64,000 bases of DNA from assembly GCF_003018255.1 (NCBI RefSeq), contig NZ_CP027440.1, one strand, 5' to 3'. The position numbers and the translations under genes are program-made. Source of the DNA: Escherichia coli. GTDB lineage: Bacteria; Pseudomonadota; Gammaproteobacteria; Enterobacterales; Enterobacteriaceae. This document shows positions 85 to 55,425 of this stretch, in pieces. How positions within the stretch are numbered: the stretch's first letter is position 1; each line of letters begins with the position of its first letter. The notes under the pieces were generated by a model that was not told the origin of the DNA, did no database searches, and saw nothing but the letters and a program-made list of their open reading frames with translations.

Positions 85-1356
85 ATGCAGTATGAAGATG
101 AAAACGGCGTGAATGAACCGTCACGCCGACGTTTACTGAAAGGGATTGGTGCGCTGGCGCTGGCGGGAAGTTGTCCGGTCGCTCATGCACAAAAAACGCA
201 AAGTGCGCCGGGTACGCTTTCACCGGATGCACGCAATGAGAAACAGCCGTTTTATGGTGAGCATCAGGCAGGGATCCTGACGCCACAACAGGCTGCAATG
301 ATGCTGGTGGCGTTTGATGTGCTTGCCAGCGATAAAGCCGATCTTGAACGGTTGTTTCGCTTGTTGACTCAGCGTTTTGCTTTTCTGACTCAGGGCGGAG
401 CGGCACCAGAAACGCCAAATCCGCGCCTGCCACCACTCGATTCCGGCATTCTTGGCGGCTACATTGCGCCCGATAATCTCACCATAACGTTATCGGTGGG
501 CCACTCATTGTTTGATGAGCGCTTTGGCCTTGCGCCACAGATGCCGAAAAAGTTGCAGAAGATGACGCGTTTCCCCAACGACTCGCTGGATGCGGCGTTA
601 TGTCATGGTGATGTGTTGCTACAAATTTGCGCCAACACCCAGGACACGGTGATCCATGCGCTGCGCGATATCATCAAACACACGCCGGATTTGCTCAGCG
701 TGCGCTGGAAGCGGGAAGGGTTTATTTCCGACCACGCGGCGCGTAGTAAAGGTAAAGAGACACCGATTAATTTGCTGGGTTTCAAAGACGGCACTGCCAA
801 TCCCGATAGCCAGAATGCGAAGTTGATGCAAAAAGTGGTGTGGGTGACGGCAGATCAGCAGGAGCCTGCGTGGACAATCGGTGGTAGCTACCAGGCGGTG
901 CGGTTGATTCAGTTTCGGGTGGAATTTTGGGACAGAACGCCGCTGAAAGAACAGCAGACGATATTTGGGCGTGATAAGCAAACCGGCGCGCCGCTGGGAA
1001 TGCAGCATGAGCATGATGTGCCTGATTACGCCAGCGATCCGGAGGGGAAGGTGATCGCGCTGGACAGCCATATCCGGCTGGCGAATCCCCGCACGCCAGA
1101 GAGTGAGTCAAGTCTGATGCTGCGTCGTGGCTACAGTTATTCGTTGGGCGTCACCAATTCCGGGCAACTCGATATGGGGCTACTGTTTGTCTGCTACCAA
1201 CACGATCTGGAAAAGGGCTTCCTGACAGTACAAAAAAGGTTGAATGGAGAGGCGCTGGAGGAATATGTCAAACCTATCGGTGGCGGCTATTTCTTTGCGC
1301 TGCCGGGTGTGAAGGACGCGAACGATTATCTCGGAAGCGCATTATTGCGGGTTTAA
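85..1356 (+). CDS. efeB: Deferrochelatase / dye-decolorizing peroxidase EfeB, Tat-secreted
   Basis: 423-aa ORF; N-terminus has a twin-arginine signal ([17 protein letters not shown]...AHA); length matches EfeB. Confidence 0.95.
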
Positions 1357-1362
1357 TGTTTT

Positions 1363-1492
1363 TAGGCGGATAAGGCGTTTACGCCGCACCAGGCGTTCGT
1401 GCGCTGATGCGACGCTTGCGCGTCTTATCATGCCTACAATCGGTGCGGGTTCGGTAGGCCGGATAAGGCGTTCACGCCGCATCCGGCAAGCT
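1363..1492. repeat. REP/BIME cluster (repetitive extragenic palindromes)
   Basis: Several copies of the GCCGGATAAGGCGTTYACGCCGCATCCGGC-type palindromic unit in alternating orientation between efeB and phoH. Confidence 0.7.
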
Positions 1493-1539
1493 TTTACCAG
1501 TACTGCGAATCCTGCTGAAAGCACACAGCTTTTTTATCA

Positions 1540-1557
1540 CTGTCATCACTTTGTCAT
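1540..1557 (+). promoter_or_regulatory. Pho box (PhoB binding site) of the phoH promoter
   Basis: CTGTCAT-cact-TTGTCAT: two 7-bp direct repeats with 4-bp spacer, matching the PhoB box consensus, upstream of phoH. Confidence 0.6.
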
Positions 1558-1981
1558 CTTTCCAGTAGAAACTAATGTCACTGAAATGGTGTTTTATGGT
1601 TAAATATAAGTGAATATATTGTTGCAATGAATGCGAGATCTGGTGTAATTATTAAGTAGCAGCGGAAGTTCCCGGCAGTGATAGTCAGTCACTATGGAGA
1701 TCGCGGATGGTAACGTCCTGTACTGGACAATGTTTTGTTAAGCAAGGCTCCACCACTCGCGGAGATTTCTCCTCCGGTAGCAACTTCGTCACTCTGTATT
1801 TTTCTCACTTCCTCTCTTTACTCGTGTTACCGACGCCGCAAACGGTGTGCGTAGCCGTTTTTCGGCATTTTATCCAAAAGCAAACTATGGCTTACAAGGA
1901 AGCCAACCCTCTGATGTTCGTGCGCATAATCGCGCTGCCAACGGCGCGTGTGATGAATACAAACAACTCAAGGTGCTCTCC

Positions 1982-2770
1982 ATGGGAAGACAAAAAGCAG
2001 TGATCAAAGCTCGTCGCGAGGCAAAACGTGTGCTGAGACGGGATTCGCGCAGCCATAAGCAGCGTGAAGAAGAATCGGTCACCTCGCTTGTGCAAATGAG
2101 CGGCGTAGAAGCCATTGGTATGGCCCGCGATAGTCGCGATACCTCGCCCATCCTCGCGCGAAATGAAGCGCAATTGCACTATCTGAAGGCTATTGAGAGT
2201 AAGCAGCTGATATTCGCCACGGGCGAAGCCGGGTGCGGAAAAACCTGGATCAGCGCAGCAAAAGCGGCAGAGGCCCTGATACATAAGGATGTCGACAGGA
2301 TTATCGTCACCCGTCCAGTTCTGCAAGCCGATGAAGATCTTGGCTTCTTACCTGGTGATATCGCAGAAAAGTTTGCTCCCTATTTTCGCCCGGTCTACGA
2401 CGTGCTGGTTCGGCGCTTAGGGGCTTCCTTTATGCAGTACTGCCTGCGACCGGAAATAGGGAAGGTGGAAATTGCGCCGTTCGCCTATATGCGTGGACGT
2501 ACCTTTGAAAATGCAGTCGTCATTCTTGACGAGGCGCAGAATGTGACTGCCGCGCAAATGAAAATGTTTTTAACCCGCCTCGGGGAGAACGTGACGGTTA
2601 TCGTCAACGGTGATATCACGCAATGCGATTTGCCTCGCGGCGTGCGCTCCGGATTAAGTGACGCGCTGGAACGTTTCGAAGAAGATGAAATGGTCGGGAT
2701 CGTCCGATTCGGTAAAGAGAATTGCGTACGTTCGGCACTTTGCCAACGTACGCTACATGCATACAGTTAA
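1982..2770 (+). CDS. phoH: Phosphate-starvation-inducible ATPase PhoH (start uncertain; see findings)
   Basis: Walker A motif GEAGCGKT and PhoH-family core; ATG at 1982 preceded by AAGG. The ORF track opens at GTG 1847 in the same frame; a separate upstream ORF (ATG 1707) is in another frame. Confidence 0.85.
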   Translation: MGRQKAVIKARREAKRVLRRDSRSHKQREEESVTSLVQMSGVEAIGMARDSRDTSPILARNEAQLHYLKAIESKQLIFATGEAGCGKTWISAAKAAEALIHKDVDRIIVTRPVLQADEDLGFLPGDIAEKFAPYFRPVYDVLVRRLGASFMQYCLRPEIGKVEIAPFAYMRGRTFENAVVILDEAQNVTAAQMKMFLTRLGENVTVIVNGDITQCDLPRGVRSGLSDALERFEEDEMVGIVRFGKENCVRSALCQRTLHAYS

Positions 2771-2819
2771 GTGTATTATCGGCGCAGAGCCCGGGCGAAC
2801 CGGGCTTTGTTTTGGGTGT

Positions 2820-3233
2820 TTATACCCGGACTAGCGTTTTTTCTGAAACCACCATTTTTATTTGTCCCTGACTGGTGAAGTGTACGCTCATCCTGTGGCT
2901 TTTTTGTAGTTGCTGATAAAGCTCATCAGGTATTGCTAAGCTCTCTGCATATTCTTGCGGCGTATATTGGTATGCTGCATGATGCTGCTGTTTTTTAAAA
3001 CGCAGCTTATTGTACAATGCCCAGACGATTAACACGACGGCATTCGCCACTGCCAGCAAAAAATAGAACTGAAGTCGGCTTCTGGCCTCGCTTTGCCAGT
3101 AATAACCCGTCAGCAGATCAATGGCGAATAAGAATATGAACAAAGCAAATAATGTCCACAAGATGGTTGTGGCAACATAATCAACCAGTAAACGTACTGG
3201 CGATTGTCGGGTCGTAATAATTAGATTGTTCAT
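2820..3233 (-). CDS. pgaD: PGA biosynthesis protein PgaD
   Basis: 137-aa membrane protein immediately downstream of pgaC; length and sequence match PgaD. Confidence 0.9.
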
Positions 3234-3234
3234 A

Positions 3235-4560
3235 TTAACCTCTCAGAATCCCACGATCGGGACTTACCCAACGAGCGCGTTGTTTTTTAGGCATCAACAT
3301 GACTCGTGTAAATGATACCAATGTCGTTGCCAGGCTTAGCATCCAGAAAATAACCGGAAACCAAATAATCCAGAAAAGCGATGAAGCCAGATTGTGCTCA
3401 TAGCGATTCTCAATTACCAGACTGACAATAAATTGCAGTAAACATAACGTGCACAATAATATTCCGGCAGTATGTGTCGCTGCGATATGTGTCAATTCAA
3501 TATTTAACGGTACACCTGCAAGTTGGACTGCGTAAATAATGAAACCGACCAGGCAGGTAAAGGCCCATATTGTCGTCAGGCAGTATTCAAAAAACAGTGG
3601 CCACATTCGAAAGTTTTCTTTTCGCCACAACCTTGTCATATTTTTGAGGAATACTTCTGCACCGCCCTGAGCCCAGCGCAGGCGCTGTTTCCACAGCCCT
3701 TTTAACGTTTCAGGCATTAATATCCAGCACAGCGCCCGTGGCTCGTAAAAAATCGTCCACTGATTCAACTGCAGCTTCCAGCTAATATCAATATCTTCGG
3801 TGATCATATCGTCACTCCAGTAACCCACTTCTGCCAGGGCGCTGCGACGAAATGCGGCAATAACACCGGAAACGGTAAATACATTTCCATAGATACGCTG
3901 GGTCCGCTTGATCAAACCAATAATTGAGGAATACTCGCCAACCTGAATTTTACCCACTAGGGTAGAACGTGTGCGAATACGAGGATTACCGGTTACGGCA
4001 CCCACACGTGGGTTGTACAACATCGGTTCCACAATATATGCCGCTGCATCGCGGTCTAATAACGCGTCGCCATCAATGCACACCAGATATTCACTTTTCG
4101 CCGCGGCAGCTCCGGTTTTAAGCGCAATGGCTTTCCCCTGGTTTTGCGCCAGATGAATGACCCGCAGACGGGGAATTTGTGCAGCCATGCGATCCAGGAT
4201 GGCACGGGTTTTGTCTGTTGAACCATCATTTACGGCAATAACTTCAATGTTCTCATAACGCTGTGCTAAAGCGGCATGTATGGTTTCCTCAACGTTTTTC
4301 TCCTCATTAAAACAGGGAATGATAATGGAGATAGATGGATTATCTTTCAACTGGGGGGCTGGTGCGTTTTCTCCCCACGGCCAGTGGCGTTCACGATAGA
4401 CCCAGAAATAGACGCCGCCAATAATCCACATAATGGACATAAAAAACGGCCAGAAGAAAACGAACCTCATCATCAGTTCACCAGAGTGAAAGTACGCTAC
4501 GCATAGAGGTATGCATAACACCAGACATAATATAAAAAACGATACGATGCGATTAATCAT
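3235..4560 (-). CDS. pgaC: Poly-beta-1,6-N-acetylglucosamine synthase PgaC (GT2 glycosyltransferase)
   Basis: 441-aa ORF with GT2 motifs ([23 protein letters not shown]). Confidence 0.95.
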
Positions 4561-6571
4561 TTTTCGGATACCAGGCTGTTGAAAACTCAGGACGAATAAC
4601 GTCTATTTCAGGTTGGTTATGCAGAAAATTGTCGGGATAATAACCATAATTTTTCACTCCATTCAGTTGTAATAGGCTCATCCAGTGAGCGAGTTGTTGT
4701 GAAGAAATAGCCTGATGCTGACCATTTTTCTGCCAGTTTTGTGCCTGTAATTCTAAAATTGATTTGTCTTTAGCCTGCGGGATGCTTTTCATCTGATTGG
4801 TCAATTGTGTTAACCATTGATCAGCCGATTTTTCTGTGACGCCTTCCATATAAGGCATAGCCATAATAGCGGTCCAGTCATAGCTTTTTAGGAAATCAGC
4901 ATAATTCTGTGCAAACCAAGCTTCACTTTCAGGTTGTATTACCGGAAGTGCAAAAATATTTCGTGCAGTTTTAACATGTGGACCACGAATGGCTTTTACG
5001 CGCGCACTAAGTTCTAAAGTGAAGTCAGTTAACGCACGACTTTTAAAGCGGGTCCACTGTTTGAATTGCTCCGGGTTTTGTCGAATTTCGCTCAGACTCC
5101 CGCTAAAGCCAGCTTGCTGATAAGCCGCGATAGCCGCTGCACTGGCATCTTCATAATCTGAAAGCAAAGCATCATCGTGGAACAATATGCCATCAAAAGC
5201 AGCATGTCCGGCAAGATCATCATATAACATGCCAACTTGTGCTCTGACCCTGTCATCGAAAGGGGAGAGACGGCGGTATTGTTCAGGATGAATTTGTGCT
5301 TTTTTCTCCCCAGTTGGTAAGTATTTTACTCGCGTTAATGTGGGATCTAAATCCCAGCTTAATACCGGCATCCACGCATAGATGTTTACACCTGAGCGGG
5401 TACGCAATTGCCAGGCAACCCGACTAAAAATATCTGCTTTCATTGGTAGCAAACGATTTGGAAACCAGACCTCTTTAACCAGCCCATCACCATCGGGATC
5501 AGCAAATGCTTGTAAATACACGGTAGATATTTGCATATCTTTTACCCTCTGAATTAGCACATCAATATTGCGATCCATTTGCTGGCGGTTTTCGTCATAA
5601 ATGTAATCAAGATCGATATGCATTACCCGTTGTAGTGGTTTTTCCTGTACGGTAATAATTTGCTGGGCAAACTCTTTTAATGAGGGATTATTGGCGATTA
5701 ATACTCGCGGAATGGAATCTAATTGCGACGCATTTGCCAAACCTGATTCAAGGGTGAAGAACATGTCATAACCGAGTTTTTTTAATTCCGCGATTGCTAT
5801 GCCATTCGCTTCGCCATAAGGCCAAACAAAAACGTGTGGATTTACCTCAGCCTTTGTACGCAGGTATTCCGTCATTTTTACAGCATCCAGACGAATTCTT
5901 TCCCGGTATTCTGCTGCGGTTTCATACCGTGCGTGGTCAGTAAAATATGCACGATTTACATATACAGGCAATAAGCTGCCGGTGGCATTAGCCTGAATAC
6001 CGTAGTGAGAATTCCATGTATGAGAAGCGACCTCAACGAGCCGGGAACGCGCAACTTCTCGCACTTGTTGCCACGTGGCAAAATATTCTCGACTGACCAT
6101 CTCATCGCCAAATTTTACTTGTTCATCCGCTGGCGTATCGACCCAACTGCCGACGGGGGCCCATACAGCAGGCCACTGGAAGGCCTGAAGAATTGGGAAG
6201 ACGCGGGTATAAAAACTCTGGTAGCCGTCATCAAAAGTCAGCACTACTGCTTTTTCCGGTAGCGGTTTTCCTCCTCGATGTGCTTCACGAATTTGAGCAA
6301 TACTGACCGGTTGATAACCGTTCTCGCGCAGCCAGGCAAATTGTTCACGCAGTGCTGATGTCCGCACTGACATAAAACGCTGGTCGGCAGCTTCGTCTTC
6401 AACGTTATGCCATGAAATCGCCACAAAACCATTATGCGGCCACGGTTGCTCGGCGAGTAAAGATTCGCGATCCTGTGGCGGTATAAATGATGTTCTTGAC
6501 TGGCTAATGCACGCAGTGAGCATAATTATACTCACCAGCATCAGGATATATTTATTTCCATTACGTAACAT
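4553..6571 (-). CDS. pgaB: PGA N-deacetylase lipoprotein PgaB
   Basis: 672-aa ORF with lipoprotein signal (LTAC) and polysaccharide deacetylase region; overlaps pgaC start by 8 nt. Confidence 0.95.
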
Positions 6572-6579
6572 ATTTATCC

Positions 6580-9003
6580 TTAAAATCTGAATGTCATATC
6601 GAATTCAACGTATAAGTTGTGTTCTCTGTCACCGTCATAAGGTCGTTTTTCCCAGCGTAGCGTTGCGCCAGCATCAATCACGTCATTCCAGCTAATACGT
6701 TGCCCGTAGCCGAGTTGGGTGACGACATCCGTGCCATAATGTTTTTGCCAGGAGGCACCAACACCTGCGCTGAAGATTTGCTCCCAGCTATTTTCATAGC
6801 TTCGCCATAACAAATGACTTGCCTCAAATGCCGGAACAATATCGAACGTTTTTATAGGGTTGTAGTATGGAGTGTCGTGTTCTGTATTTTGTTCGTAATA
6901 CAGATTGGGTAGGAAATCGACAATCAAATATGGTGAAGACCAGATGCGTTCCTGACCCTCAAGTGAGACTTCCTGACGCTGGTTACTGTCGGAAAAATCA
7001 GTGAAAGCCCAGGAGACACCGTACTTACGCCGCTCATTTTGATACCAGCGAACATAAGCCTGAGCACTGTTGCCTGTAACACCATTTTTCATTGCCCGTA
7101 ATGGAACGCGGTGAGAGAGGCGTTCCAGTTGCGAACCAATACGCCAGTTATCATTAAAATCATACCAGCCAGACAGGCGCGCGCCGGGTTTATGCTCATG
7201 ATTGAAAACGCGTTCAGCGTACTCCGCCTCGAGCCAGATATTACGTGACCGCCACTCAACACCCGCCAGCCAGTCGCGAACAATCCCTTTTCCTTCGCTA
7301 AATTGTCCATCGGCATAACCGAATCCAGCAAAACCGCGCCAGTTATCCTTCAGCGGTGGTGAATAAACGATGGTGGTTAAGTCGACATCATGTTTACCAC
7401 TATCCGGGCCTTCGGCATCAATTCCTGTTGAACCAGCTATACGAAGCTCTGCAAGATTATGTACATCAACCGCACGTTTTAAACGTACAACGCCGGGATC
7501 TTGCGGTTCACGTTCGACAACATCGTGCGTTAAGACAGCTGCCTGCTGCCATTCTTGTAACGTTAATGCTGTCCATGCTTGTTCAACCTCCAGATTAATA
7601 TTACGTGGCTCGATCACTTCTGCTTTTTTTAATTCATTTTCTGCTGCACGAGGCCAACCGCGGGCTTGTAACACACTCGCGTAATCAATGCGCAGTCCCT
7701 GATTTCCTGGTGCGTTATAAGCAAGCTCTCTGGCTATCATTTCAGCCTGAGGAAGATCATTACTATATTTTGCTACGGTTGAGAGAAACGAATGCCCCTG
7801 TAACCAGGTATCATTCGGGATGCTCGTAGGCGTGCCCATTAACCGAAGGAAAGGCGGCGAAGTATTAATGGTATGTTGGGTGACAGTTAGCGCGCCGGGA
7901 TAATTTTCACTCTCCAGGTGGCTGTAAAAGAGATCCGCAAGTTCTTCATCGGATAAATCCGGGGCAATGGTCTCCTTGTGATAAAAGAGCTCTGTCATTA
8001 TTGACTGTGCTTTTTTTGGCTGCTGTTCTTTGAGATAAGCCGACGCAACCCAATATTGCGCCCAGGGCGGAATAATTTGCCTCGTATTTTTTAAACGCTG
8101 ATAGTGAGAAATAACGTCTTTATAACGATCGCGAGTTAATAACGCGCCAAGATGATCAACCTGAATACGCTGGTACTGGGCAGTGCGGTCTGAGTTATCG
8201 TGCCACAGAATTTCTAATGCAGCGTATTGGGCGAGGGCGCGATCGGCAATGGCATAACGTTCACTTTCACTGCGCGTAGGCATAAACGACAGTCTGATCA
8301 GTTCGGCATGAATATCAGCGCGAATATCTGGCGTTAAATTGGCATCGTCAATCGCGGCAGCTAGTTGATTATTACGTAATGCCTGCACGTATTCTGTGGG
8401 ATATTGTTGCTTAGATGCATTTTCAGGTAATGACTCTGTCATCGCCCGTAATTCATCCTGATGACGCCCCGTCAGTTTATAGATATAGGCTTCTGCGAGT
8501 AAATTGGCTTTGTCCGGCGCTCCAGATTTAAGCTGCTTAAGTTTAACCAGCGCAGTATCATAGTGACCCGCATCTGCCAGGGTTAAAATTTGTCCCCGTT
8601 GATAATCCTTATTTTGCGGCTCCAGAGAGAGCGCCTTTTGCCACAGTGTAAGCGAGTTTTGCCATTGTTGCAGGTTACGATAAGCGACGGCGACAGCTGC
8701 ATAACCACGCGCTGGTAATTGCTGATGACGGTAGCGGCTGTAAACGGTAATGACCTGTTTATCTTGCCCGGCCCATAAGGCAATTTGTAACCAGTCAGCA
8801 ATTTGGTTATTACTGAGTGTTGATTTTTGTGCAAACCATGACAAAGCTGGCTGAGTATTTCCTTTGCGAGCTTCAATAATCAATGCATCATAGGCGTTAT
8901 TAACAGCACTCTTCGCCGCGGGACTCGCTGCTAAAAATGCGGCAGTAAGAAGTTTCAAAGCCCATTTGGTTTTCGGGCACCTTTTTCTGCTACTTGAATA
9001 CAT
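6580..9003 (-). CDS. pgaA: PGA outer-membrane export porin PgaA (TPR plus beta-barrel)
   Basis: 807-aa ORF with signal peptide; length and sequence match PgaA. Confidence 0.95.
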   Translation of the reverse strand: MYSSSRKRCPKTKWALKLLTAAFLAASPAAKSAVNNAYDALIIEARKGNTQPALSWFAQKSTLSNNQIADWLQIALWAGQDKQVITVYSRYRHQQLPARGYAAVAVAYRNLQQWQNSLTLWQKALSLEPQNKDYQRGQILTLADAGHYDTALVKLKQLKSGAPDKANLLAEAYIYKLTGRHQDELRAMTESLPENASKQQYPTEYVQALRNNQLAAAIDDANLTPDIRADIHAELIRLSFMPTRSESERYAIADRALAQYAALEILWHDNSDRTAQYQRIQVDHLGALLTRDRYKDVISHYQRLKNTRQIIPPWAQYWVASAYLKEQQPKKAQSIMTELFYHKETIAPDLSDEELADLFYSHLESENYPGALTVTQHTINTSPPFLRLMGTPTSIPNDTWLQGHSFLSTVAKYSNDLPQAEMIARELAYNAPGNQGLRIDYASVLQARGWPRAAENELKKAEVIEPRNINLEVEQAWTALTLQEWQQAAVLTHDVVEREPQDPGVVRLKRAVDVHNLAELRIAGSTGIDAEGPDSGKHDVDLTTIVYSPPLKDNWRGFAGFGYADGQFSEGKGIVRDWLAGVEWRSRNIWLEAEYAERVFNHEHKPGARLSGWYDFNDNWRIGSQLERLSHRVPLRAMKNGVTGNSAQAYVRWYQNERRKYGVSWAFTDFSDSNQRQEVSLEGQERIWSSPYLIVDFLPNLYYEQNTEHDTPYYNPIKTFDIVPAFEASHLLWRSYENSWEQIFSAGVGASWQKHYGTDVVTQLGYGQRISWNDVIDAGATLRWEKRPYDGDREHNLYVEFDMTFRF

Positions 9004-9237
9004 CCTGTATTACTCCATGTATTGCCAAAATCTCTCTCTATATCTAATTACAGGTAACTGAAAAGAAAGATATTTTTGCATCTCATAATCCGTTATTAAA
9101 CGCGGAAGAGACACGTGAATTGTTGATGATGAGAAGAAGAAATGATGAGCAGATTGTCCATATAAAATCCTTTTCTCGCCCGAAAATCCATTCCAATGAT
9201 GAGGATCTTCAGGAATACGGCATAAATCCCAATGCCT
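9004..9237 (-). promoter_or_regulatory. pgaA 5' leader with multiple GGA motifs (CsrA-binding leader)
   Basis: AT-rich untranslated region upstream of the pgaA start with at least six GGA motifs on the transcribed strand, one adjacent to the start codon (GGATG). Confidence 0.5.
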
Positions 9238-9590
9238 TTTTCAAAATAAATTAGGATTAAAATAATTAAATCAGTAAATTCCGATGCATAATTTCGGATT
9301 TTTCGAAAGTCCTGATGAAAGGCAGCGCTACTGCACTCACGAATTTAATTGTTATTCCTAATGTATCTATTAATTAATGCTTTATAAGGATTTTATTATA
9401 ATCCTTTATAAGTATTTGCAAGCCTGCCTTGCAGCAAAAAATGTATAAAGCATTAAAGTGATAATAATTACATTCTGCAACTATCATCATCGGTATTGTT
9501 TGTGGGTGGATTTTCATATTGACAACAGTACAGTTCTTATATCTATTAATAATAAAAAGGGATCTACAACCTACAGGTTGGTGTAGCTTT

Positions 9591-10958
9591 ATGGAAAAAG
9601 ACTATTTGGGAATTAGTAGTACTGTATTAGTGAGCTTATTGTTTGGGCTTGCATTGGTTTTGGTTAATAGTTGGTTCAATCAGCCAACCGTTGAGGAAGT
9701 TGTTCCACGATCAACCTATCTGATGGTTATGATTGCTTTATTTTTTATCGATACTGTTGCATTTATTTTTATGCAGTTGTATTTCATTTATGACCGTAGG
9801 CAATTTTCAAACTGTATACTTAGTTTGGCTTTTCTAAGTTGTTTGATTTACTTTATTAAAACCGTCATTATCATTCAGCAAATTATTGAGGGGCGTTTGA
9901 CAAGCAGTGTTGTTCAAAATGACATTGCAATTTATTATTTGTTTCGTCAGATGAGTTTGTGCGTATTAATATTTCTGGCATTGGTAAATAAAGTTAGTGA
10001 AAACACAAAACAGCGCAATTTGTTTTCCAAAAAAGTGACTTTGTGCATAACTTTGTTTTTTGTTCTTGGGGGGCCGATAGTTGCTCACATATTTTCTAGC
10101 CATTATGAGAGCTACGATTTACACATTGCCGAGTTAACCAATAAAAATGGTCAGGTGGTTTGGAAAGCCTCATATGTTACCATAATGATTTTCATGTGGT
10201 TAACCTTGCTTTCGGTTAATCTATACTTTAATGGTTTACGCTGTGATATCTGGAACGGGGTGTCGGTGATTGCTTTTTGTGCCGTGCTGTACAATATCTC
10301 TCTGTTATTTATGAGCAGGTATAGCGTGTCCATTTGGTATATTAGTCGCACTATTGAAGTAGTCAGTAAGTTAACCGTTTTGGTAATTTTTATGTGCCAT
10401 ATATTCAGTGCGCTACGAGTAACAAAGGACATTGCACATCGCGATCCCTTAACCAATATATTTAACAGAAATTATTTTTTTAATGAACTGACGGTTCAAT
10501 CAGCATCGGCCAAAAAAAAACCTTATTGCGTCATGATTATGGATATTGACCACTTCAAAAAAGTCAACGACACCTGGGGACATCCGGTTGGCGATCAAGT
10601 GATAAAGACAGTGGTGAATATCATTGGGAAAAGCATACGACCAGATGACCTTTTAGCGCGCGTTGGCGGCGAAGAGTTTGGCGTCTTGCTGACGGAGATC
10701 GATACTGAATGTGCGAAAGCTTTAGCGGAAAGGATTCGGGAAAATGTTGAACGTTTAACTGGCGATAATCCTGAATACGCCATACCACAAAAAGTGACAA
10801 TTAGTATTGGCGCTGTTGTAACGCAGAAAAATGAGTTAAACCCTAAGGAGATCTATCAACTGGCTGATAACGCACTTTACGAGGCGAAAGAGACCGGGCG
10901 TAATAAGGTGGTAGTAAAAGAGGCAGAAATTCTTATCAACCGCAAGGATGATGAATGA
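9591..10958 (+). CDS. dgcT: Membrane-anchored diguanylate cyclase (GGDEF) YcdT/DgcT
   Basis: Multi-TM N-terminal half plus C-terminal GGDEF domain (RVGGEEFGVLL); start placed at ATG 9591 (MEKDYLGISS), downstream of the ORF-track start. Confidence 0.85.
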   Translation: MEKDYLGISSTVLVSLLFGLALVLVNSWFNQPTVEEVVPRSTYLMVMIALFFIDTVAFIFMQLYFIYDRRQFSNCILSLAFLSCLIYFIKTVIIIQQIIEGRLTSSVVQNDIAIYYLFRQMSLCVLIFLALVNKVSENTKQRNLFSKKVTLCITLFFVLGGPIVAHIFSSHYESYDLHIAELTNKNGQVVWKASYVTIMIFMWLTLLSVNLYFNGLRCDIWNGVSVIAFCAVLYNISLLFMSRYSVSIWYISRTIEVVSKLTVLVIFMCHIFSALRVTKDIAHRDPLTNIFNRNYFFNELTVQSASAKKKPYCVMIMDIDHFKKVNDTWGHPVGDQVIKTVVNIIGKSIRPDDLLARVGGEEFGVLLTEIDTECAKALAERIRENVERLTGDNPEYAIPQKVTISIGAVVTQKNELNPKEIYQLADNALYEAKETGRNKVVVKEAEILINRKDDE

Positions 10959-11020
10959 GTCTGTCGCTAGTTGTCGACCTCCGCCTGGGGCTTCTCATCC
11001 CCCAGTGTGTGAAATATACG

Positions 11021-11048
11021 AAAAAAAGCTCGCACTTTCGTACGAGCT
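11021..11048 (-). terminator. Intrinsic terminator downstream of serX
   Basis: Hairpin AGCTCG...CGAGCT followed by a U-run on the minus strand, just 3' of the tRNA. Confidence 0.45.
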
Positions 11049-11060
11049 CTTCTTTAAATA

Positions 11061-11148
11061 TGGCGGTGAGGGGGGGATTCGAACCCCCGATACGTTGCCG
11101 TATACACACTTTCCAGGCGTGCTCCTTCAGCCACTCGGACACCTCACC
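11061..11148 (-). tRNA. serX: tRNA-Ser (anticodon GGA), encoded CCA, long variable arm
   Basis: Reverse complement reads GGTGAGGTGTCCGAGTGGCTGAAGGAGCACGCCTGGAAAGTGTG...GGTTCGAATCCCCCCCTCACCGCCA; anticodon loop CUGGAAA gives anticodon GGA. Confidence 0.93.
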
Positions 11149-11182
11149 AAATTGTCGTTCCTGTCTTGCTGGAACGGGCGCT

Positions 11183-11211
11183 AATTTAGGGAAATCATGA
11201 CCTGAGGTCAA
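11183..11211 (-). promoter_or_regulatory. Putative sigma70 promoter of serX
   Basis: TTGACC - 17 nt - TAAATT on the minus strand, followed by a GC-rich discriminator, about 30 nt upstream of the mature tRNA 5' end. Confidence 0.5.
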
Positions 11212-11329
11212 CAAACTTTTTTAAAAAATCGCTCGATTATTCAAACTTCAATCAATATGCAGTTTTAATAAGCGAAATTTGCTTTTTTTGCCACCGACCA
11301 CGGATTTGTTATGCTGCTGGTCTTTGTAG

Positions 11330-12319
<990 letters not shown>

Positions 12320-12373
12320 TAAAGCATCAGGTTTCCTGCTATCCTTGGCGGGAATTGAATACAGGAGAGAGTT

Positions 12374-13111
12374 ATGTATCCCGTCGACCTTCATATGCAT
12401 ACCGTTGCCAGCACGCATGCATATAGCACATTGAGTGATTACATTGCCCAGGCCAAACAAAAGGGCATTAAACTTTTTGCGATCACCGATCATGGCCCGG
12501 ATATGGAAGATGCGCCGCATCACTGGCACTTCATTAACATGCGTATCTGGCCGCGAGTGGTTGATGGGGTTGGGATCCTGCGCGGCATCGAAGCTAACAT
12601 TAAAAATGTTGACGGTGAAATTGACTGCAGTGGCAAAATGTTTGATTCGCTGGATCTGATTATTGCCGGTTTTCATGAGCCGGTGTTTGCGCCGCATGAC
12701 AAAGCGACCAATACGCAAGCGATGATCGCCACTATCGCCAGCGGCAATGTGCATATAATAAGCCATCCCGGAAATCCGAAATATGAAATAGATGTTAAAG
12801 CCGTTGCTGAAGCAGCCGCGAAACATCAGGTGGCGCTGGAAATCAATAATTCCTCATTTTTACACTCACGTAAGGGCAGTGAAGACAACTGTCGGGCGGT
12901 AGCCGCAGCGGTACGTGACGCTGGAGGTTGGGTGGCATTAGGCTCGGATTCTCACACTGCGTTTACCATGGGGGAATTTGAAGAGTGTCTTAAAATCCTC
13001 GACGCGGTAGATTTTCCGCCAGAGCGCATTTTGAATGTTTCTCCGCGCCGCTTACTTAACTTCCTTGAATCTCGCGGTATGGCACCGATTGCGGAATTTG
13101 CAGACCTTTAA
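12374..13111 (+). CDS. ycdX: PHP-family metal-dependent phosphatase YcdX
   Basis: 245-aa ORF beginning [10 protein letters not shown] with His-rich PHP motifs. Confidence 0.93.
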
Positions 13112-13134
13112 TTACTAGTAATGGAAATATATTA

Positions 13135-13689
13135 ATGAATGAGTTTTCTATCCTCTGTCGTGTGCTGGGTTCGCTCTATTACCGCCAACCGCAAGATCCT
13201 TTACTGGTGCCGTTGTTTACCCTGATTCGTGAGGGGAAACTGGCTGCGAACTGGCCACTGGAGCAGGATGAGTTACTGACGCGTTTACAGAAAAGCTGTG
13301 ATATGACGCAAGTCTCTGCCGATTACAATGCGTTGTTTATCGGCGATGAATGTGCTGTGCCGCCATATCGTAGCGCATGGGTTGAGGGCGCAACGGAAGC
13401 GGAAGTGCGCGCTTTTCTTTCCGAACGAGGGATGCCACTAGCGGATACGCCAGCCGATCACATCGGCACATTGCTGCTTGCGGCTTCCTGGCTGGAAGAT
13501 CAGTCAACGGAAGATGAGAGCGAAGCACTGGAAACACTGTTCAGTGAGTATCTGTTACCCTGGTGTGGTGCGTTCCTTGGCAAAGTGGAGGCCCATGCAA
13601 CTACGCCTTTCTGGCGCACCATGGCACCGCTAACCCGCGATGCTATTAATGCAATGTGGGACGAGCTGGAAGAAGATTCTGAAGAGTAA
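13135..13689 (+). CDS. ycdY: TorD-family chaperone YcdY
   Basis: 184-aa ORF immediately downstream of ycdX; matches YcdY. Confidence 0.9.
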   Translation: MNEFSILCRVLGSLYYRQPQDPLLVPLFTLIREGKLAANWPLEQDELLTRLQKSCDMTQVSADYNALFIGDECAVPPYRSAWVEGATEAEVRAFLSERGMPLADTPADHIGTLLLAASWLEDQSTEDESEALETLFSEYLLPWCGAFLGKVEAHATTPFWRTMAPLTRDAINAMWDELEEDSEE

Positions 13690-13790
13690 ATGTGATCTGC
13701 ATCACTCATAACTGCAACGGGTAATTTGTTGTTGCATAAAATGTGTGCTCGATCTCATTCATGGCCGCGTTTTCTGCTATCATGCGCGGC

Positions 13791-14282
13791 ATGAACATAC
13801 TTCTCTCTATTGCAATCACAACAGGCATTCTCTCCGGTATCTGGGGATGGGTGGCTGTTTCCCTGGGCTTACTAAGCTGGGCGGGCTTCCTGGGCTGTAC
13901 GGCCTACTTTGCCTGCCCACAAGGTGGGCTGAAAGGGCTGGCGATCTCCGCTGCAACCCTGCTTAGTGGCGTGGTGTGGGCGATGGTCATTATTTACGGT
14001 AGTGCACTGGCACCACATCTGGAAATACTCGGTTATGCCATAACCGGTATTGTCGCGTTTCTGATGTGTATCCAGGCCAAACAGCTGCTGCTTTCATTTG
14101 TTCCGGGGACGTTTATAGGCGCATGCGCGACGTTTGCCGGGCAGGGTGACTGGAAACTGGTGTTACCTTCGCTGGCGCTTGGACTGGTATTTGGTTACGC
14201 AATGAAAAACAGCGGCCTGTGGTTGGCGGCGCGTAGTGCAAAGACGGCTCACCGTGAGCAGCAAATCAAAAATAAAGCGTGA
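13791..14282 (+). CDS. ycdZ: Inner membrane protein YcdZ (DUF1097)
   Basis: Hydrophobic 163-aa product from ATG 13791 (MNILLSIAITTG...); the ORF track begins 16 codons upstream. Confidence 0.85.
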   Translation: MNILLSIAITTGILSGIWGWVAVSLGLLSWAGFLGCTAYFACPQGGLKGLAISAATLLSGVVWAMVIIYGSALAPHLEILGYAITGIVAFLMCIQAKQLLLSFVPGTFIGACATFAGQGDWKLVLPSLALGLVFGYAMKNSGLWLAARSAKTAHREQQIKNKA

Positions 14283-14345
14283 GGGGCACTCACGCTTTCG
14301 CTTAAACCGTAAAATGTCGGATGATAATTCCGGCATTTTTATCTA

Positions 14346-15179
14346 TCAGGATTCCGGTGGAACCGACATATGGCGGTATTTCACTAGAATGTCATTCTGC
14401 CGTTCTGCTTTATTTTGCAAATCCCAAAGACCGCGGTCGATACCATCATTAATCAGGAAAATGACGCCTGTTTCGATAGCCGACATCAGGCACAGCATAA
14501 CGGGTTCGTTCGAGGTGTAACCTACTTCCCCTTCCAGCAAGCGCTGGTAGTCAATAAAGCGGAAGACCCCCGCCTGAACTTCATAGGAAAGTATCGTCTT
14601 ACTGGTGTTCACCGAGGAGAGGATCTCGCCGGTACTCACATTGACGACGCGCAGGTTCACGGCAATCTGATCAAGCTGGTATTGCGTGTCTGCACCGATC
14701 CCAAAATATCTTGCCCCAACCCCGCCCGATTTAACGTTGCTTTCATAACCGATAATTGAACCTTCAACCATGATATTTGCCGCCGTTAAAGATTGCAGCG
14801 GGATTCGGTTATTAATGGCAACCGTGCCGTTTTCTTGTGCCGCACGAATAATCTTGCGCTCGTTAAGCAGGTTTTGTAAGCCTTGGCGCTCCAGCGGTAT
14901 AAACCAGCGAGAATCTTTCAATGCCGTGACCAGCATTGCCGTGGCGCTTTGCGGAACAGCAGTGGAGAAGTTACTTGCCGGGTAGGGTTTAAATTGCCCG
15001 GTTTCGTCCTGAATGTTGTATACCGAAACAAAGATCTTACCCGTCGGCGCTGGCAGATGGGTCAAATCTTTGTAGCTCTGAGCACGAGGCATTAATGTCG
15101 GTCTGGCGGCTTCTTTAGGCGGGGCGGTTAAGCATCCGCTCAGTAACATGACGGCAACCAAAAGAAATAAGCGCTGCAT
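14346..15179 (-). CDS. csgG: Curli secretion channel lipoprotein CsgG
   Basis: 277-aa ORF with lipoprotein signal (LLSGC); matches CsgG. Confidence 0.95.
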   Translation of the reverse strand: MQRLFLLVAVMLLSGCLTAPPKEAARPTLMPRAQSYKDLTHLPAPTGKIFVSVYNIQDETGQFKPYPASNFSTAVPQSATAMLVTALKDSRWFIPLERQGLQNLLNERKIIRAAQENGTVAINNRIPLQSLTAANIMVEGSIIGYESNVKSGGVGARYFGIGADTQYQLDQIAVNLRVVNVSTGEILSSVNTSKTILSYEVQAGVFRFIDYQRLLEGEVGYTSNEPVMLCLMSAIETGVIFLINDGIDRGLWDLQNKAERQNDILVKYRHMSVPPES

Positions 15180-15205
15180 GATTATTTTCCTTATGAAGCT
15201 GGGGC

Positions 15206-15622
15206 TTAAAAATCGGTTGAGTTATTTTGTAAACCCGAAACCTGGATGGTCGAGGTTTGTCCGGTTTTACGATCTGTCACGTTCAACTGCAATTGACCAT
15301 CGCGGTTAGCAATATCAACAATATAATCGTTGGTCACCATGCGGCCCGGTTTACCGGTATTAATATTCGACAGTAGCCCACCCAAAATTTGTGACTGGAT
15401 GGCCTGAGTAAAGTTATCTAACGCCGAGGGCGTTTCAATACCAAAGTCATCGTTATAGCTCGGATCTTTATAAGAGTTTTGGGCCTGAGCGCTATTTAAC
15501 AAAAAAGCGCCATTATTTGGGTTACCACCAAAGTTTGGATTACGGAACTGGAAAGTCATGGTTCCAGCCCAACTTAATGGCGAAATAAGCATGAGTAGAA
15601 CTACTGCATGTTTGACACGCAT
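15206..15622 (-). CDS. csgF: Curli assembly protein CsgF
   Basis: 138-aa secreted protein in the csgDEFG operon. Confidence 0.93.
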
Positions 15623-15646
15623 TGCAGCCTCCGAACAATTTATTAT

Positions 15647-16036
15647 TTAAAATTCATCATGCGCCAAATCGCCCGTACTTAATAACGCTTGGTTTATCTG
15701 GCGACGATTTAGTGCTTCTTCAGTTTGAATCAGTGCAAAGACGACAGTTTTCTCGAAGTCTCTTTTCAACGGAAATAAAAAAGTCTGGAAAATAACGTCC
15801 TGATTCACCGTTATTGTGATCCAGCTTCCCCATCGTGCACTGGGCCTTTCATTAATCGTTAAGTTACCCGTATAGTCACTTTCCCATTTATCACTAAAGG
15901 CTCGGTAAAAATCATGGCCAATAGATGAAACAGTATGGTCAGTTAACAATCCCGGGACTTCTACCTCAACGGCGTGAAGATTCCCTGCGGCGAACAGAAA
16001 TTCTGCCGCCACAATCCAGCGTAAATAACGTTTCAT
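15647..16036 (-). CDS. csgE: Curli secretion specificity factor CsgE
   Basis: 129-aa ORF between csgD and csgF. Confidence 0.93.
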
Positions 16037-16040
16037 GGCT

Positions 16041-16691
<651 letters not shown>

Positions 16692-17444
16692 GATGAAACC
16701 CCGCTTTTTTTATTGATCGCACACCTGACAGCTGCCTCTAAAATAGAAGCACCAGAAGTACTGACAGATGTTGCACTGCTGTGTGTAGTAATAAATCAGC
16801 CCTAAATGGGTAAAATATAAAACTAATGGATTACATCTGATTTCAATCTAGCCATTACAAATCTTAAATCAAGTGTTAAACATGTAACTAAATGTAACTC
16901 GTTATATTAAAATGTTAATCTTAAGGTTTTATTAAGTTTAGAAATGATAGAAAAGTTGTACATTTGGTTTTTATTGCACAATTTTAAAAAATCATACAAA
17001 TGGTGCTAACTTACTAATAATGCATATAAAAAATATTTCGGTGTAGTCCTTTCGTCATGTAAAACGTTCTTGTTTTTTCTCCACACCTCCGTGGACAATT
17101 TTTTACTGCAAAAAGACGAGGTTTGTCACGGCTTGTGCGCAAGACATATCGCAGCAATCAGCGACGGGCAAGAAGAATGATTGTCTGGTGATTTTTGATA
17201 GCGGAAAACGGAGATTTAAAAGAAAACAAAATATTTTTTGCGTAGATAACAGCGTATTTACGTGAGTTTTAATACTTTGGTATGAACAAAAAAAGAAAAA
17301 TACAACGCGCGGGTGAGTTATTAAAAATATTTCCGCAGACATACTTTCCATCGTAACGCAGCGTTAACAAAATACAGGTTGCGTTAACAACCAAGTTGAA
17401 ATGATTTAATTTCTTAAATGTACGACCAGGTCCAGGGTGACAAC
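16692..17444. promoter_or_regulatory. csgD-csgB divergent intergenic control region (csgDEFG and csgBAC promoters, csgD 5' UTR)
   Basis: About 750 bp AT-rich non-coding DNA between divergent csgD and csgB; well known as a multi-regulator hub. Confidence 0.6.
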
Positions 17445-17900
17445 ATGAAAAACAAATTGTTATTTATGATGTTAACAATACTGGGTGCGCCTGGGATTGC
17501 AGCCGCAGCAGGTTATGATTTAGCTAATTCAGAATATAACTTCGCGGTAAATGAATTGAGTAAGTCTTCATTTAATCAGGCAGCCATAATTGGTCAAGCT
17601 GGGACTAATAATAGTGCTCAGTTACGGCAGGGAGGCTCAAAACTTTTGGCGGTTGTTGCGCAAGAAGGTAGTAGCAACCGGGCAAAGATTGACCAGACAG
17701 GAGATTATAACCTTGCATATATTGATCAGGCGGGCAGTGCCAACGATGCCAGTATTTCGCAAGGTGCTTATGGTAATACTGCGATGATTATCCAGAAAGG
17801 TTCTGGTAATAAAGCAAATATTACACAGTATGGTACTCAAAAAACGGCAATTGTAGTGCAGAGACAGTCGCAAATGGCTATTCGCGTGACACAACGTTAA
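17445..17900 (+). CDS. csgB: Minor curlin subunit (nucleator) CsgB
   Basis: 151-aa product from ATG 17445 (MKNKLLFMMLTILG...) with signal peptide and curlin repeats. Confidence 0.93.
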   Translation: MKNKLLFMMLTILGAPGIAAAAGYDLANSEYNFAVNELSKSSFNQAAIIGQAGTNNSAQLRQGGSKLLAVVAQEGSSNRAKIDQTGDYNLAYIDQAGSANDASISQGAYGNTAMIIQKGSGNKANITQYGTQKTAIVVQRQSQMAIRVTQR

Positions 17901-17940
17901 TTTCCATTCGACTTTTAAATCAATCCGATGGGGGTTTTAC

Positions 17941-18396
17941 ATGAAACTTTTAAAAGTAGCAGCAATTGCAGCAATCGTATTCTCTGGTAGCGCTCTGGCA
18001 GGTGTTGTTCCTCAGTACGGCGGCGGCGGTAACCACGGTGGTGGCGGTAATAATAGCGGCCCAAATTCAGAGCTGAACATTTACCAGTACGGTGGCGGTA
18101 ACTCTGCTCTTGCTCTGCAAGCTGACGCCCGTAACTCTGATCTGACCATTACCCAGCACGGCGGCGGTAACGGCGCAGATGTTGGCCAAGGTTCTGATGA
18201 CAGCTCAATCGATCTGACTCAGCGTGGTTTCGGCAACAGCGCTACTCTTGATCAGTGGAATGGTAAAGATTCTACTATGACTGTTAAACAGTTCGGTGGT
18301 GGTAACGGTGCTGCTGTTGACCAGACTGCATCTAACTCCAGCGTCAACGTCACTCAGGTTGGCTTTGGTAACAACGCGACCGCTCATCAGTACTAA
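17941..18396 (+). CDS. csgA: Major curlin subunit CsgA
   Basis: 151-aa ORF with signal peptide and five Ser-X5-Gln-X-Gly-X-Gly-Asn repeats. Confidence 0.95.
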   Translation: MKLLKVAAIAAIVFSGSALAGVVPQYGGGGNHGGGGNNSGPNSELNIYQYGGGNSALALQADARNSDLTITQHGGGNGADVGQGSDDSSIDLTQRGFGNSATLDQWNGKDSTMTVKQFGGGNGAAVDQTASNSSVNVTQVGFGNNATAHQY

Positions 18397-18413
18397 TACA
18401 TCCTCTGTATTAA

Positions 18414-18442
18414 AGAAACAGGGCGCAAGCCCTGTTTTTTTT
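18414..18442 (+). terminator. Intrinsic terminator after csgA
   Basis: AAACAGGGCGCAAGCCCTGTTTTTTTT: perfect hairpin plus T-run. Confidence 0.6.
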
Positions 18443-18454
18443 CGGGAGAAGAAT

Positions 18455-18838
<384 letters not shown>

Positions 18839-18839
18839 G

Positions 18840-19219
<380 letters not shown>

Positions 19220-54572: not shown

Positions 54573-55357
<785 letters not shown>

Positions 55358-55384
55358 AAATATATCCTTCGGCTTTGCGTGGAT

Positions 55385-55425
55385 GATAATTATACAGTAC
55401 ATGTAACGCTAATGTCATTACAGCA
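55385..55425 (-). promoter_or_regulatory. Putative promoter/operator of the toxin-antitoxin operon
   Basis: Minus strand: ATGACA - 18 nt - TATAAT, with palindromes TAATGACATTA (over the -35) and TACATGTA (in the spacer). Confidence 0.4.

Follow-up and report, generated by a model that had tools for sequence, protein, structure and literature searches.

Poly-β-1,6-N-acetylglucosamine (PGA, also PNAG), a vaccine target, is among the major adhesins of biofilms, and the history of the pga genes therefore affects how their presence or absence in pathogens is read. We take hmsHFRS and hmsT of Yersinia to be the counterpart of the four-gene pga operon and its cyclase. In E. coli, the functions of the genes and the regulation of the spacer between pgaA and dgcT (ycdT) are already published: c-di-GMP activates the PgaC-PgaD synthase, and CsrA represses both the pga and the dgcT mRNAs, in the case of pgaA via a 234-nt leader whose length and CsrA/Rho attenuation mechanism have been described (PMC4052769). 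Published, too, are the variable presence of the locus, the fact that some E. coli strains lack pga and ycdT together, and a suspicion of horizontal transfer. Wang, in 2004, reportedly noted "features of a horizontally transferred locus" for pga. A later study found pgaABCD trees roughly congruent with those of phoH and of the species, and concluded that the operon was inherited vertically, with losses (Echeverz et al. 2017, PMC5464674). Here we analyze the pga-dgcT locus in a 64-kb stretch of E. coli DNA (the window), together with the corresponding site in relatives.

Gene Content of the Block

Positions 2820-10958 of the window hold the E. coli PGA biofilm module, pgaABCD plus the divergent dgcT. 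A first-pass annotation of this DNA had the gene content and coordinates right. pgaDCBA lies on the minus strand, dgcT/ycdT ends at 10958 on the plus strand, and serX follows. pgaD (2820..3233, minus strand, GC 0.425) encodes the small protein that partners the PgaC synthase in the inner membrane (Pfam PF13994, E = 9e-16) and matches the pgaD annotated in strain A26 at 100% identity. pgaC (3235..4560, minus strand, GC 0.460, GC3 0.475), which bears the same name in the RefSeq annotation of a near-identical genome, encodes the GT2 poly-β-1,6-GlcNAc synthase (Glycos_transf_2, PF00535, E = 1e-39). The PNAG N-deacetylase/glycoside hydrolase lipoprotein is encoded by pgaB (4553..6571, minus strand, GC 0.445, GC3 0.383), with Polysacc_deac_1 (PF01522) and GHL13 (PF14883) domains, and the outer-membrane PNAG export porin by pgaA (6580..9003, minus strand, GC 0.469, GC3 0.418), with TPR repeats and a β-barrel (PgaA_barrel, PF21197, E = 1e-137). 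These four co-directional genes carry the domains expected of a pgaABCD operon, by Pfam and by the RefSeq annotation of a 99.9% identical genome. From the ∼97% DNA identity to the characterized K-12 locus, with all frames intact, we infer that the pga genes of the window produce PNAG.

The divergent gene, dgcT (9591..10958, plus strand, GC 0.381), has the makeup of a MASE4-GGDEF diguanylate cyclase: a MASE4 membrane sensor (PF17158, E = 2.5e-70) is joined to a GGDEF domain (PF00990, E = 4e-51), the GGEEF active site at residue 359 is intact, and an RxxD I-site (RPDD, residue 350) lies five residues upstream.

The pgaA-dgcT Spacer

The spacer had been described as 515 bp long and extremely AT-rich. 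Its GC content is indeed low (32.4%), but its length is 587 bp (586 bp in K-12) because dgcT starts at the annotated ATG at 9591, which is kept in four divergent alleles; the shorter figure came from a TTG at 9519, which we rejected as the start codon. Nor is its AT level out of the ordinary, since other long regulatory spacers of the window stand at 34.1% (csgD-csgB), 32.3% (yceJ-yceO) and 34.3% GC (bssS-dinI).

Three segments make up the spacer. The pgaA 5′ untranslated leader (+1 to +234; 9004..9237, minus strand) is where CsrA binds GGA sites and where the +61..+107 hairpin and Rho-dependent attenuator lie. It matches K-12 at 230/234 nt and contains seven GGA motifs (+9, +44, +49, +68, +79, +147, and +222), along with a hairpin at +61..+107 that is predicted at -6.4 kcal/mol and would mask the rut site. 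Upstream lies the pgaA promoter region (-124 to -1; 9238..9361, minus strand, GC 0.298), placed here from the NhaR-activated -124..+234 fragment of PMC4052769. Its near-identity to K-12 points to a putative NhaR site upstream of pgaA, and the earlier proposal of an NhaR target zone agrees with published activation by, and binding of, NhaR at the pgaABCD promoter. The remaining 229 bp (9362..9590, plus strand, 29% GC) are the upstream region of dgcT, a putative promoter and leader, and it is mostly here that the spacer differs from K-12; ycdT is expressed very weakly (PMC4287979). Sliding windows over 9001-10250 stand at 32-33% GC, versus 50% for the whole window, an AT content of the kind found in H-NS-bound DNA. 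In the open literature, we found no report of H-NS occupancy or hns derepression at pgaA-ycdT, a region that had been proposed as a likely H-NS target.

Base Composition

The block is more AT-rich than its flanks, as had been proposed, with GC of 0.434 versus 0.507 and pooled GC3 of 0.419 versus 0.548 in the rest of the window. It is the lowest-GC 8-kb segment of the 64 kb, and neighboring genes are at 0.542 (efeB), 0.527 (phoH), 0.511 (ghrA), and 0.492 (ycdX). The most extreme parts are the spacer (32% GC) and dgcT (38%), the latter second lowest among the 59 genes of the window (z = -3.0). In the codon-usage check that the first-pass annotation had called for, codon choice is just mildly atypical: by codon-choice likelihood, the synonymous codons of the block genes deviate with z of -0.5 to -1.8. 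A foreign dinucleotide signature was sought in the block and not seen (δ* 40 versus a median of 36, no outlier). Moreover, the curli genes of the window are as AT-rich as the block (pooled GC3 0.419), and because these core genes match it, AT-richness alone is weak evidence of transfer.

The phoH-serX Site in Relatives

We compared the site in 80 Enterobacteriaceae PhoH-anchored loci, with breakpoints determined by blastn. Downstream of phoH, pga is absent from 79 of them. In Citrobacter (5 loci), Enterobacter soli, Yokenella, E. albertii, and E. coli E69, phoH is followed by 0.2-2.5 kb and then by serX-ghrA, a comparison that shows phoH-serX-ghrA as the likely ancestral arrangement in Enterobacteriaceae. 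In these pga-less loci, similarity to the window breaks off at 2797-2819 and is taken up again at 10961-11021 (in all of them but one, at 10961-10970); the left breakpoints of Citrobacter, Enterobacter, Yokenella, and E. albertii lie at 2811-2819. Because these breaks coincide with the ends of the block, the block appears to be a precisely bounded insertion; the comparison of locus presence across relatives suggested at the outset has thus yielded an empty phoH-serX site with breakpoints at the block ends. Within the genus, at least some empty sites are secondary, since one pga-less Escherichia locus (L008) retains 34 bp of the pgaD 3′ end.

The block lies between two terminators. On the left, the ancestral DNA would end with the phoH intrinsic terminator (2784..2813, plus strand), GCCCGG-GCGAA-CCGGGC followed by UUUGUUUU; the fold of 2771-2819 is predicted at -22.8 kcal/mol (z = -3.3). 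On the right, a 102-bp spacer, the apparently ancestral serX 3′ flank (10959..11060, minus strand), separates the block from serX and holds the serX intrinsic terminator (11021-11054; 15-bp stem plus U7, fold z = -5.7). serX itself (11061..11148, minus strand; ARAGORN; Rfam tRNA, 53.8 bits) encodes tRNA-Ser(GGA), with its 3′ end towards the block. The flank contains one copy of an "RtT-type" repeat unit (10961-11079), each unit including the final 19 nt of the tRNA. The unit occurs 2-4 times in Citrobacter and E. albertii and in four copies (one partial) beside serX in K-12, where Rfam RtT matches them; Rfam gives no RtT match in the window because one unit is present there. Over the block, the Rfam search returned the tRNA, a Ysr251 match within phoH, and otherwise sub-threshold noise.

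Judged by what lies between the two genes, the phoH-serX interval serves many genera as a hot spot for cargo. Salmonella arizonae has a 9-kb sialic-acid-type cluster there (44% GC), and S. diarizonae has a similar series of ORFs after phoH. A DUF2726 gene occupies the interval in E. albertii and at least 282 E. coli genomes; Escherichia sp. E1V33 carries orphan genes at 30% GC, and E. whittamii shows these ORFs after phoH too. Further cargo includes ycdU/IS3 in K-12 and pdeT in EDL933. In Klebsiella and Enterobacter, other genes sit between two copies of serX, and such cargo is seen in many genera.

Within E. coli, the block is present in 4,411/5,426 complete genomes (81%) and missing from 19%. 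A single 102-bp dgcT-serX unit, as in the window, is found in 1,149 of the 5,426, and the E69-type empty-site allele was not found as one piece in any complete genome. Against K-12, the block has dS of 0.05-0.13 and its flanks 0.06-0.18; this equality of within-species synonymous divergence argues that the block predates E. coli diversification.

Is the Block a tRNA Island?

The block had been read as consistent with an anciently acquired biofilm island next to a tRNA gene, and we find that it behaves as an old acquisition: its composition deviates, its presence varies among strains, and the site is empty in relatives. It lacks, however, the marks of a tRNA-targeting island. In a classical history, an integrase-bearing pga-dgcT element would have entered the 3′ end of serX, and its integrase and att sites would later have decayed. 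This history draws on the position of the block on the serX 3′ side, 102 bp off, on flanking repeat units that each include the tRNA end, on the other cargo at the same place (ycdU/IS3, pdeT, DUF2726), and on cargo lying between serX copies in many genera. The sequence itself runs against it. No integrase or recombinase ORF was found in or beside the block, which is filled by five genes with non-recombinase domains, and neither transposase nor integrase was found at its boundaries. The 19-nt serX 3′ end has no second copy in the 64-kb window, with up to 3 mismatches allowed; a scan of 2500-11400 for direct and inverted repeats gave short chance-level pairs, none at the boundaries. The junction also lies past the serX terminator, ∼100 bp beyond the tRNA and outside its gene, and no copy was seen on true plasmids or known mobile elements. 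Since integrase, att repeat, and plasmid copy are all missing, we do not regard the block as a classical tRNA island, and its origin as a decayed one seems highly improbable to us. Eleven matches labeled "plasmid" were considered in this connection; all are E. coli records of 0.16-4.9 Mb, 10 of them typed as non-mobilizable, and they are most likely chromosomal pieces and were therefore rejected as a sign of mobility.

Origin of the Block

Taken together, the site and the composition lead us to regard the 8.1-kb pga-dgcT unit as probably an old insertion, derived from an AT-rich, separate pga lineage and pre-dating the diversification of E. coli. The unit would have entered between the convergent phoH and serX terminators of the ancestral phoH-serX-ghrA arrangement, at a site that seems to gather lineage-specific, mostly AT-rich cargo across Enterobacteriaceae. 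Entry would have come before E. coli diversified, the mobility genes having since been lost or never having been there, and some strains may then have lost or replaced the block secondarily. We note the points that stand against an insertion: the published phylogeny, normal dinucleotides, mild codon bias, AT-rich curli genes, no boundary marks, and the L008 remnant.

The alternative is vertical inheritance: pgaABCD would have been present in the ancestor of Enterobacteriaceae and lost many times, for example in Salmonella, and the low GC would be a local equilibrium, set by weak expression, AT-biased mutation, and selection for nucleoid-protein binding. The similarity of the pga gene trees to the phoH and species trees (PMC5464674) speaks for this, as do the normal dinucleotide signature, the equally AT-rich curli genes, and ycdT's very low level of expression (PMC4287979). 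GC3 also holds at 0.38-0.46 in near-saturated alleles (dS 0.9-1.4 for the window versus loci L007 and L087). However, pga occurs at no fewer than five different chromosomal sites. Modules of the E. coli type are placed elsewhere in other hosts: in L087, pgaBA-dgcT adjoins cadCB, and dgcT and the pgaA-dgcT spacer are again the most AT-rich parts; in locus L090, an MCP gene and dctMQP flank pgaABCD, with pga GC3 of 0.41-0.51 versus 0.52-0.70 in the neighbors. The pga operons of Enterobacter and Citrobacter portucalensis are at yet other sites, with GC3 equal to that of their flanks. Because those operons are not AT-rich, low GC is not intrinsic to the pga genes, and because the "E. coli-type" module has a low GC content in every place where it occurs, its composition most likely reflects its source, or has long been maintained, rather than following from pga function as such.

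Protein distances also count against vertical descent. PgaA is only 42-51% identical to its counterparts in sister genera, a level that also holds for Xenorhabdus and Plesiomonas, and PgaC identity levels off at 64-70%, whether the comparison is with Citrobacter, Enterobacter, Oceanisphaera, or Pseudomonas; the E. coli-type proteins are thus equally distant from those of Citrobacter and Enterobacter and from those of Pseudomonas, Oceanisphaera, and Xenorhabdus. For the proteins of the flanks, by contrast, identity to homologues in other genera is 71-95%. With PgaA and PgaC identities at a plateau across many taxa, no donor lineage was picked out. Finally, breakpoints in the pga-less genera match the exact block ends, with no remnants seen. 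On balance, vertical inheritance with repeated loss appears unlikely, and the old insertion of a separate lineage remains our preferred account.

A more specific version of that insertion is put forward here tentatively, and the whole of it is less likely to be right than wrong. The phoH-serX interval may be a pan-Enterobacteriaceae, integrase-free cargo-exchange hot spot built on tRNA-Ser 3′-end (RtT-type) repeats, in which AT-rich cassettes (pga-dgcT, DUF2726, ycdU, the sialic-acid cluster, and the orphan genes) swap by recombination. The PGA synthase and its dedicated MASE4 cyclase might then form a portable signal-and-effector cassette whose entry into Escherichia was independent of the pga operons found in Citrobacter and Enterobacter. 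If true, this would revise the published view of Salmonella as simply having lost an ancestral pga operon.

What the analysis adds to the literature is modest: the exact bounds of the insertion between two terminators, the empty or differently filled site in sister genera, and the E. coli-type module as an apparently distinct, consistently AT-rich lineage at several sites. The last of these tempers the published picture, in which vertical inheritance was followed by loss.

Comparison with Known Systems

The locus agrees with pgaABCD-ycdT of K-12 (b1021-b1025) in its genes, their order and orientation, and its left neighbor phoH, at ∼97% nucleotide identity. K-12 differs between dgcT and serX, where IS3D, the pseudogene ymdE, ycdU, and a further three RtT-type copies (one partial) are found, and its dgcT has had the last 12 codons replaced. 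The pga operons of other Enterobacterales (Enterobacter, Citrobacter, and Klebsiella) share the four genes and their domain architecture, and in Enterobacter and the metagenomic locus L093 a MASE4-GGDEF cyclase gene adjoins pga as well. They differ in their chromosomal sites, in PgaA (42-57% identical), in the position of the cyclase gene, which is downstream (co-directional or convergent) instead of divergent as in the window, and, for Enterobacter and Citrobacter, in a host-like GC content.

With tRNA-associated islands such as those at selC, pheV, and leuX, the block has in common that it adjoins a tRNA gene on the 3′ side, that its GC is deviant and its presence variable among strains, and that relatives have empty sites; it departs from them in having no integrase and no att direct repeats, in its size of only 8 kb, and in a junction outside the tRNA gene. 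The repeat units of the serX flank, in turn, resemble the tyrT-rtT region (Rfam RF00391) in ending in the last 19 nt of a tRNA, but they flank serX rather than tyrT, and the window has a single unit.

Gene Layout of the pga-dgcT Block

The window is E. coli chromosome. Nucleotides 2500-11500 are 99.9% identical to strain A26, whose RefSeq annotation was transferred with every frame checked, and have at least a partial match in 5,425 of 5,426 complete E. coli genomes. The genes efeB (85-1356, +) and phoH (1982-2770, +) are followed by pgaD (2820-3233), pgaC (3235-4560), pgaB (4553-6571), and pgaA (6580-9003), all on the minus strand, then by the divergent dgcT (ycdT; 9591-10958, +), the tRNA-Ser(GGA) gene serX (11061-11148, -), ghrA (11381-12319, +), ycdXYZ, and the curli genes. 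All five block proteins contain their expected Pfam domains, and in DgcT the GGEEF site is intact and accompanied by an RPDD I-site. On the strand opposite the 3' part of phoH, Rfam strongly matches the Yersinia sRNA Ysr251 (190.8 bits; 2572-2765, -), which is probably a consequence of conserved phoH sequence rather than a separate gene. Elsewhere in the window, a TacT/TacA-type toxin-antitoxin pair (54573-55402, -) of a GNAT acetyltransferase (169 aa) and a DUF1778 protein (112 aa) is inserted between flgL and rne. The pair occurs in 685 of the 5,426 complete genomes, whereas in most others the match is confined to the flanks of the query, and A26 has a 194-bp gap in its place.

phoH-serX as a Probable Insertion Site

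PhoH was scanned in one genome per bacterial species, and the best 80 loci, all from Enterobacteriaceae, were kept. The pga-dgcT genes lie downstream of phoH in one of these 80, a divergent Escherichia locus (L007). In five Citrobacter loci, Enterobacter soli, Yokenella, E. albertii, Escherichia sp. E1V33, and E. coli E69, phoH is followed after 0.2-2.5 kb by serX-ghrA. The window homology of these pga-less loci spans the phoH terminator, stops at 2811-2819 in other genera, and resumes in all but one locus at 10961-10970, 3-12 nt past the dgcT stop codon. These breakpoints place the limits of the block precisely at the stop codons of pgaD and dgcT; two pre-existing convergent terminators, those of phoH (2784-2813) and serX (11021-11054), enclose it. 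The first-pass annotation had proposed an anciently acquired biofilm island abutting a tRNA gene. An old insertion is supported, whereas a classical tRNA-island mechanism is unlikely: the block has neither a recombinase gene nor boundary repeats, the serX 3' end occurs just once in the window, and the junction lies beyond the serX terminator. Eleven plasmid-database matches, E. coli records of 0.16-4.9 Mb of which 10 are typed non-mobilizable, are most likely chromosomal.

The DNA at 10961-11079 is ancestral right-hand sequence, a single repeat unit made up of the spacer and the last 19 nt of serX. Citrobacter and E. albertii carry two to four such units and K-12 carries four, one of them partial, the K-12 repeat region lying at 13962-14665 of its locus (L002). 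The Rfam family RtT (RF00391) is recognized in the K-12 copies and matches only where units are tandem; the Rfam search gave no RtT match for the single unit in the window. In many genera, two complete serX copies lie 0.3-5 kb apart, often with genes in between. The last 12 dgcT codons differ between the window (10913-10958) and K-12 (L002, 11200-11235), the window's 3' end being of the same type as that of L007. The K-12 DgcT C-terminus is probably derived, since in K-12 the altered 3' end abuts the ycdU/IS3D segment.

The phoH-serX interval is a hot spot that holds other cargo in other lineages. In Salmonella arizonae (L057, 4088-13310), it contains a sialic-acid-type cluster of ∼9 kb and 44% GC that encodes an RpiR regulator, a sodium-solute symporter, a NanM epimerase, a KdgM-type porin, an MFS transporter, and a Gfo/Idh/MocA oxidoreductase; in S. 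diarizonae (L079, 10784-20783), phoH is followed by ORFs in a similar series. A DUF2726 gene occupies the interval in E. albertii, Escherichia sp. MOD1-EC7003, and at least 282 E. coli genomes, and orphan genes of 30% GC do so in Escherichia sp. E1V33, the same ORFs following phoH in E. whittamii. Klebsiella, Enterobacter, and others carry two full serX copies with various genes in between, and K-12 has IS3D, ymdE', and ycdU beside dgcT. The direct dgcT-serX junction of the window is present in only 1,149 of the 5,426 complete E. coli genomes.

Base Composition and the pgaA-dgcT Spacer

The block (2820-10958) has a GC content of 43.4% against 50.7% in the remaining window, and a pooled GC3 of 0.419 against 0.548; no other 8-kb segment of the window is as low in GC. 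With a GC of 0.381, dgcT is second lowest among the 59 window genes; GC3 is 0.383 in pgaB and 0.418 in pgaA, and the GC of efeB, phoH, ghrA, and ycdX is 0.49-0.54. GC and codon usage thus differ from those of the flanking core genes, and the AT-richness first described stands, with four qualifications. Codon choice in the block deviates only mildly, and its dinucleotide signature is ordinary (delta* 40 versus a median of 36). Low GC in this neighborhood is not confined to the pga block, because the core curli genes csgFED/csgBAC (15206-18787) equal the block in pooled GC3 (0.419) and the 753-bp csgD-csgB spacer (16692-17444) has a GC of 34.1%.

The pgaA-dgcT spacer, given initially as 515 bp from an upstream TTG, is 587 bp long from the annotated dgcT ATG, a start kept in four alleles, the most divergent at 63%. 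Its GC of 32.4% is typical for the long regulatory spacers of the window (csgD-csgB 34.1%, yceJ-yceO 32.3%, bssS-dinI 34.3%). Mapping via the published -124..+234 promoter-leader fragment (PMC4052769) places the pgaA leader at 9237-9004 (-) and the promoter region at 9361-9238 (-), the remaining 229 bp being the dgcT upstream region. The leader is identical to K-12 at 230 of 234 positions and contains seven GGA motifs, two of them located in the left arm of the +61..+107 hairpin. Activation of pga by NhaR and repression by CsrA are published (PMC4052769 among the sources), and ycdT, whose expression is very weak, is thought to supply c-di-GMP for PGA synthesis (PMC4287979). On composition alone, H-NS binding at the spacer is plausible; we found no H-NS occupancy data for pgaA-ycdT in the open literature.

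Age and Allelic Variation

The block is found in 4,411 of the 5,426 complete E. coli genomes, 4,215 of them with at least 80% of it covered. Relative to K-12, its dS (0.05-0.13) resembles that of the flanks (0.06-0.18), so the block diversified with the species and is no recent arrival; dN/dS is 0.30 for dgcT, 0.23 for pgaB, and 0.18 for pgaA versus 0.02-0.09 for the flanks. At least two types of loss are seen, an IS1-mediated deletion after which 129 bp of pgaD remain and the DUF2726 arrangement, collinear with E. albertii. Because 34 bp of pgaD persist in Escherichia sp. E1V33, its "empty" site is secondary. In L007, dS reaches 0.9-1.3 across pgaB-pgaA-dgcT versus 0.1-0.5 in pgaC, pgaD, and the flanks. 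This hyperdivergent allele (12576-18969; ∼80% amino-acid identity) suggests old balanced variation or a recombination import; a version with 80-90% identity is present in 82 E. coli genomes. Over 85-16000, the window is a mosaic relative to A26, with pgaD through ghrA at 99.9-100%, efeB at 97.2%, phoH at 98.9%, and csgG at 98.0%, which suggests a recombination tract over the block, although A26 had been picked as the best match to this same region.

Relation to Other pga Loci and Published Work

E. coli-type pga modules also occur at other sites. One has pgaBA-dgcT beside cadCB (L087; PgaA 77% identical) and repeats the AT-rich pattern (dgcT GC 0.377, spacer 0.309); in another, pgaABCD is flanked by an MCP gene and dctMQP (L090; PgaA 74% identical), with a pga GC3 of 0.41-0.51 versus 0.52-0.70, mostly 0.59-0.70, in neighbor genes. 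The operons of Enterobacter cloacae (fabI side, with a MASE4-GGDEF gene after it) and Citrobacter portucalensis (lysS side) occupy yet other sites, and their pga GC3 equals that of the flanks, so pga genes are not inherently low in GC. The PgaA proteins of sister genera share 42-51% identity with E. coli PgaA and are no nearer to it than those of Xenorhabdus or Plesiomonas, and PgaC identities plateau at 64-70% across Citrobacter, Enterobacter, Erwinia, Oceanisphaera, and Pseudomonas. Flank proteins, in contrast, stay high across other genera (PhoH 92-95%, EfeB 78-90%, GhrA 71-81%), a pattern that fits a separate origin of E. coli-type pga better than clock-like vertical descent.

DgcT orthologues of >60% identity were found only adjoining pgaA; the next-best proteins (42-46%) include a YeaI-type paralogue and MASE4-GGDEF genes that are unlinked to pga or differently arranged. 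A MASE4-GGDEF cyclase adjoins pgaABCD downstream and in the same direction in Enterobacter (L091, 16244-17593) and convergently in a metagenomic contig (L093, 7999-9375). The synthase-cyclase pairing recurs in differing arrangements.

Cimdins et al. 2017 reported some E. coli strains that lack both pga and ycdT but retain phoH, serX, and ghrA, and they suggested acquisition (PMC5635171). Variable inserts next to ycdT were noted by Richter et al. 2014 (PMC4287979), and a 2025 preprint described the PNAG operon as variably present and subject to transfer. Our results agree with all three, and the block finding is already known in substance. They qualify the vertical inheritance with loss in Salmonella argued by Echeverz et al. 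2017 (PMC5464674): Citrobacter and Salmonella have either nothing or different cargo at the E. coli site, and the examined Citrobacter pga operons lie elsewhere.
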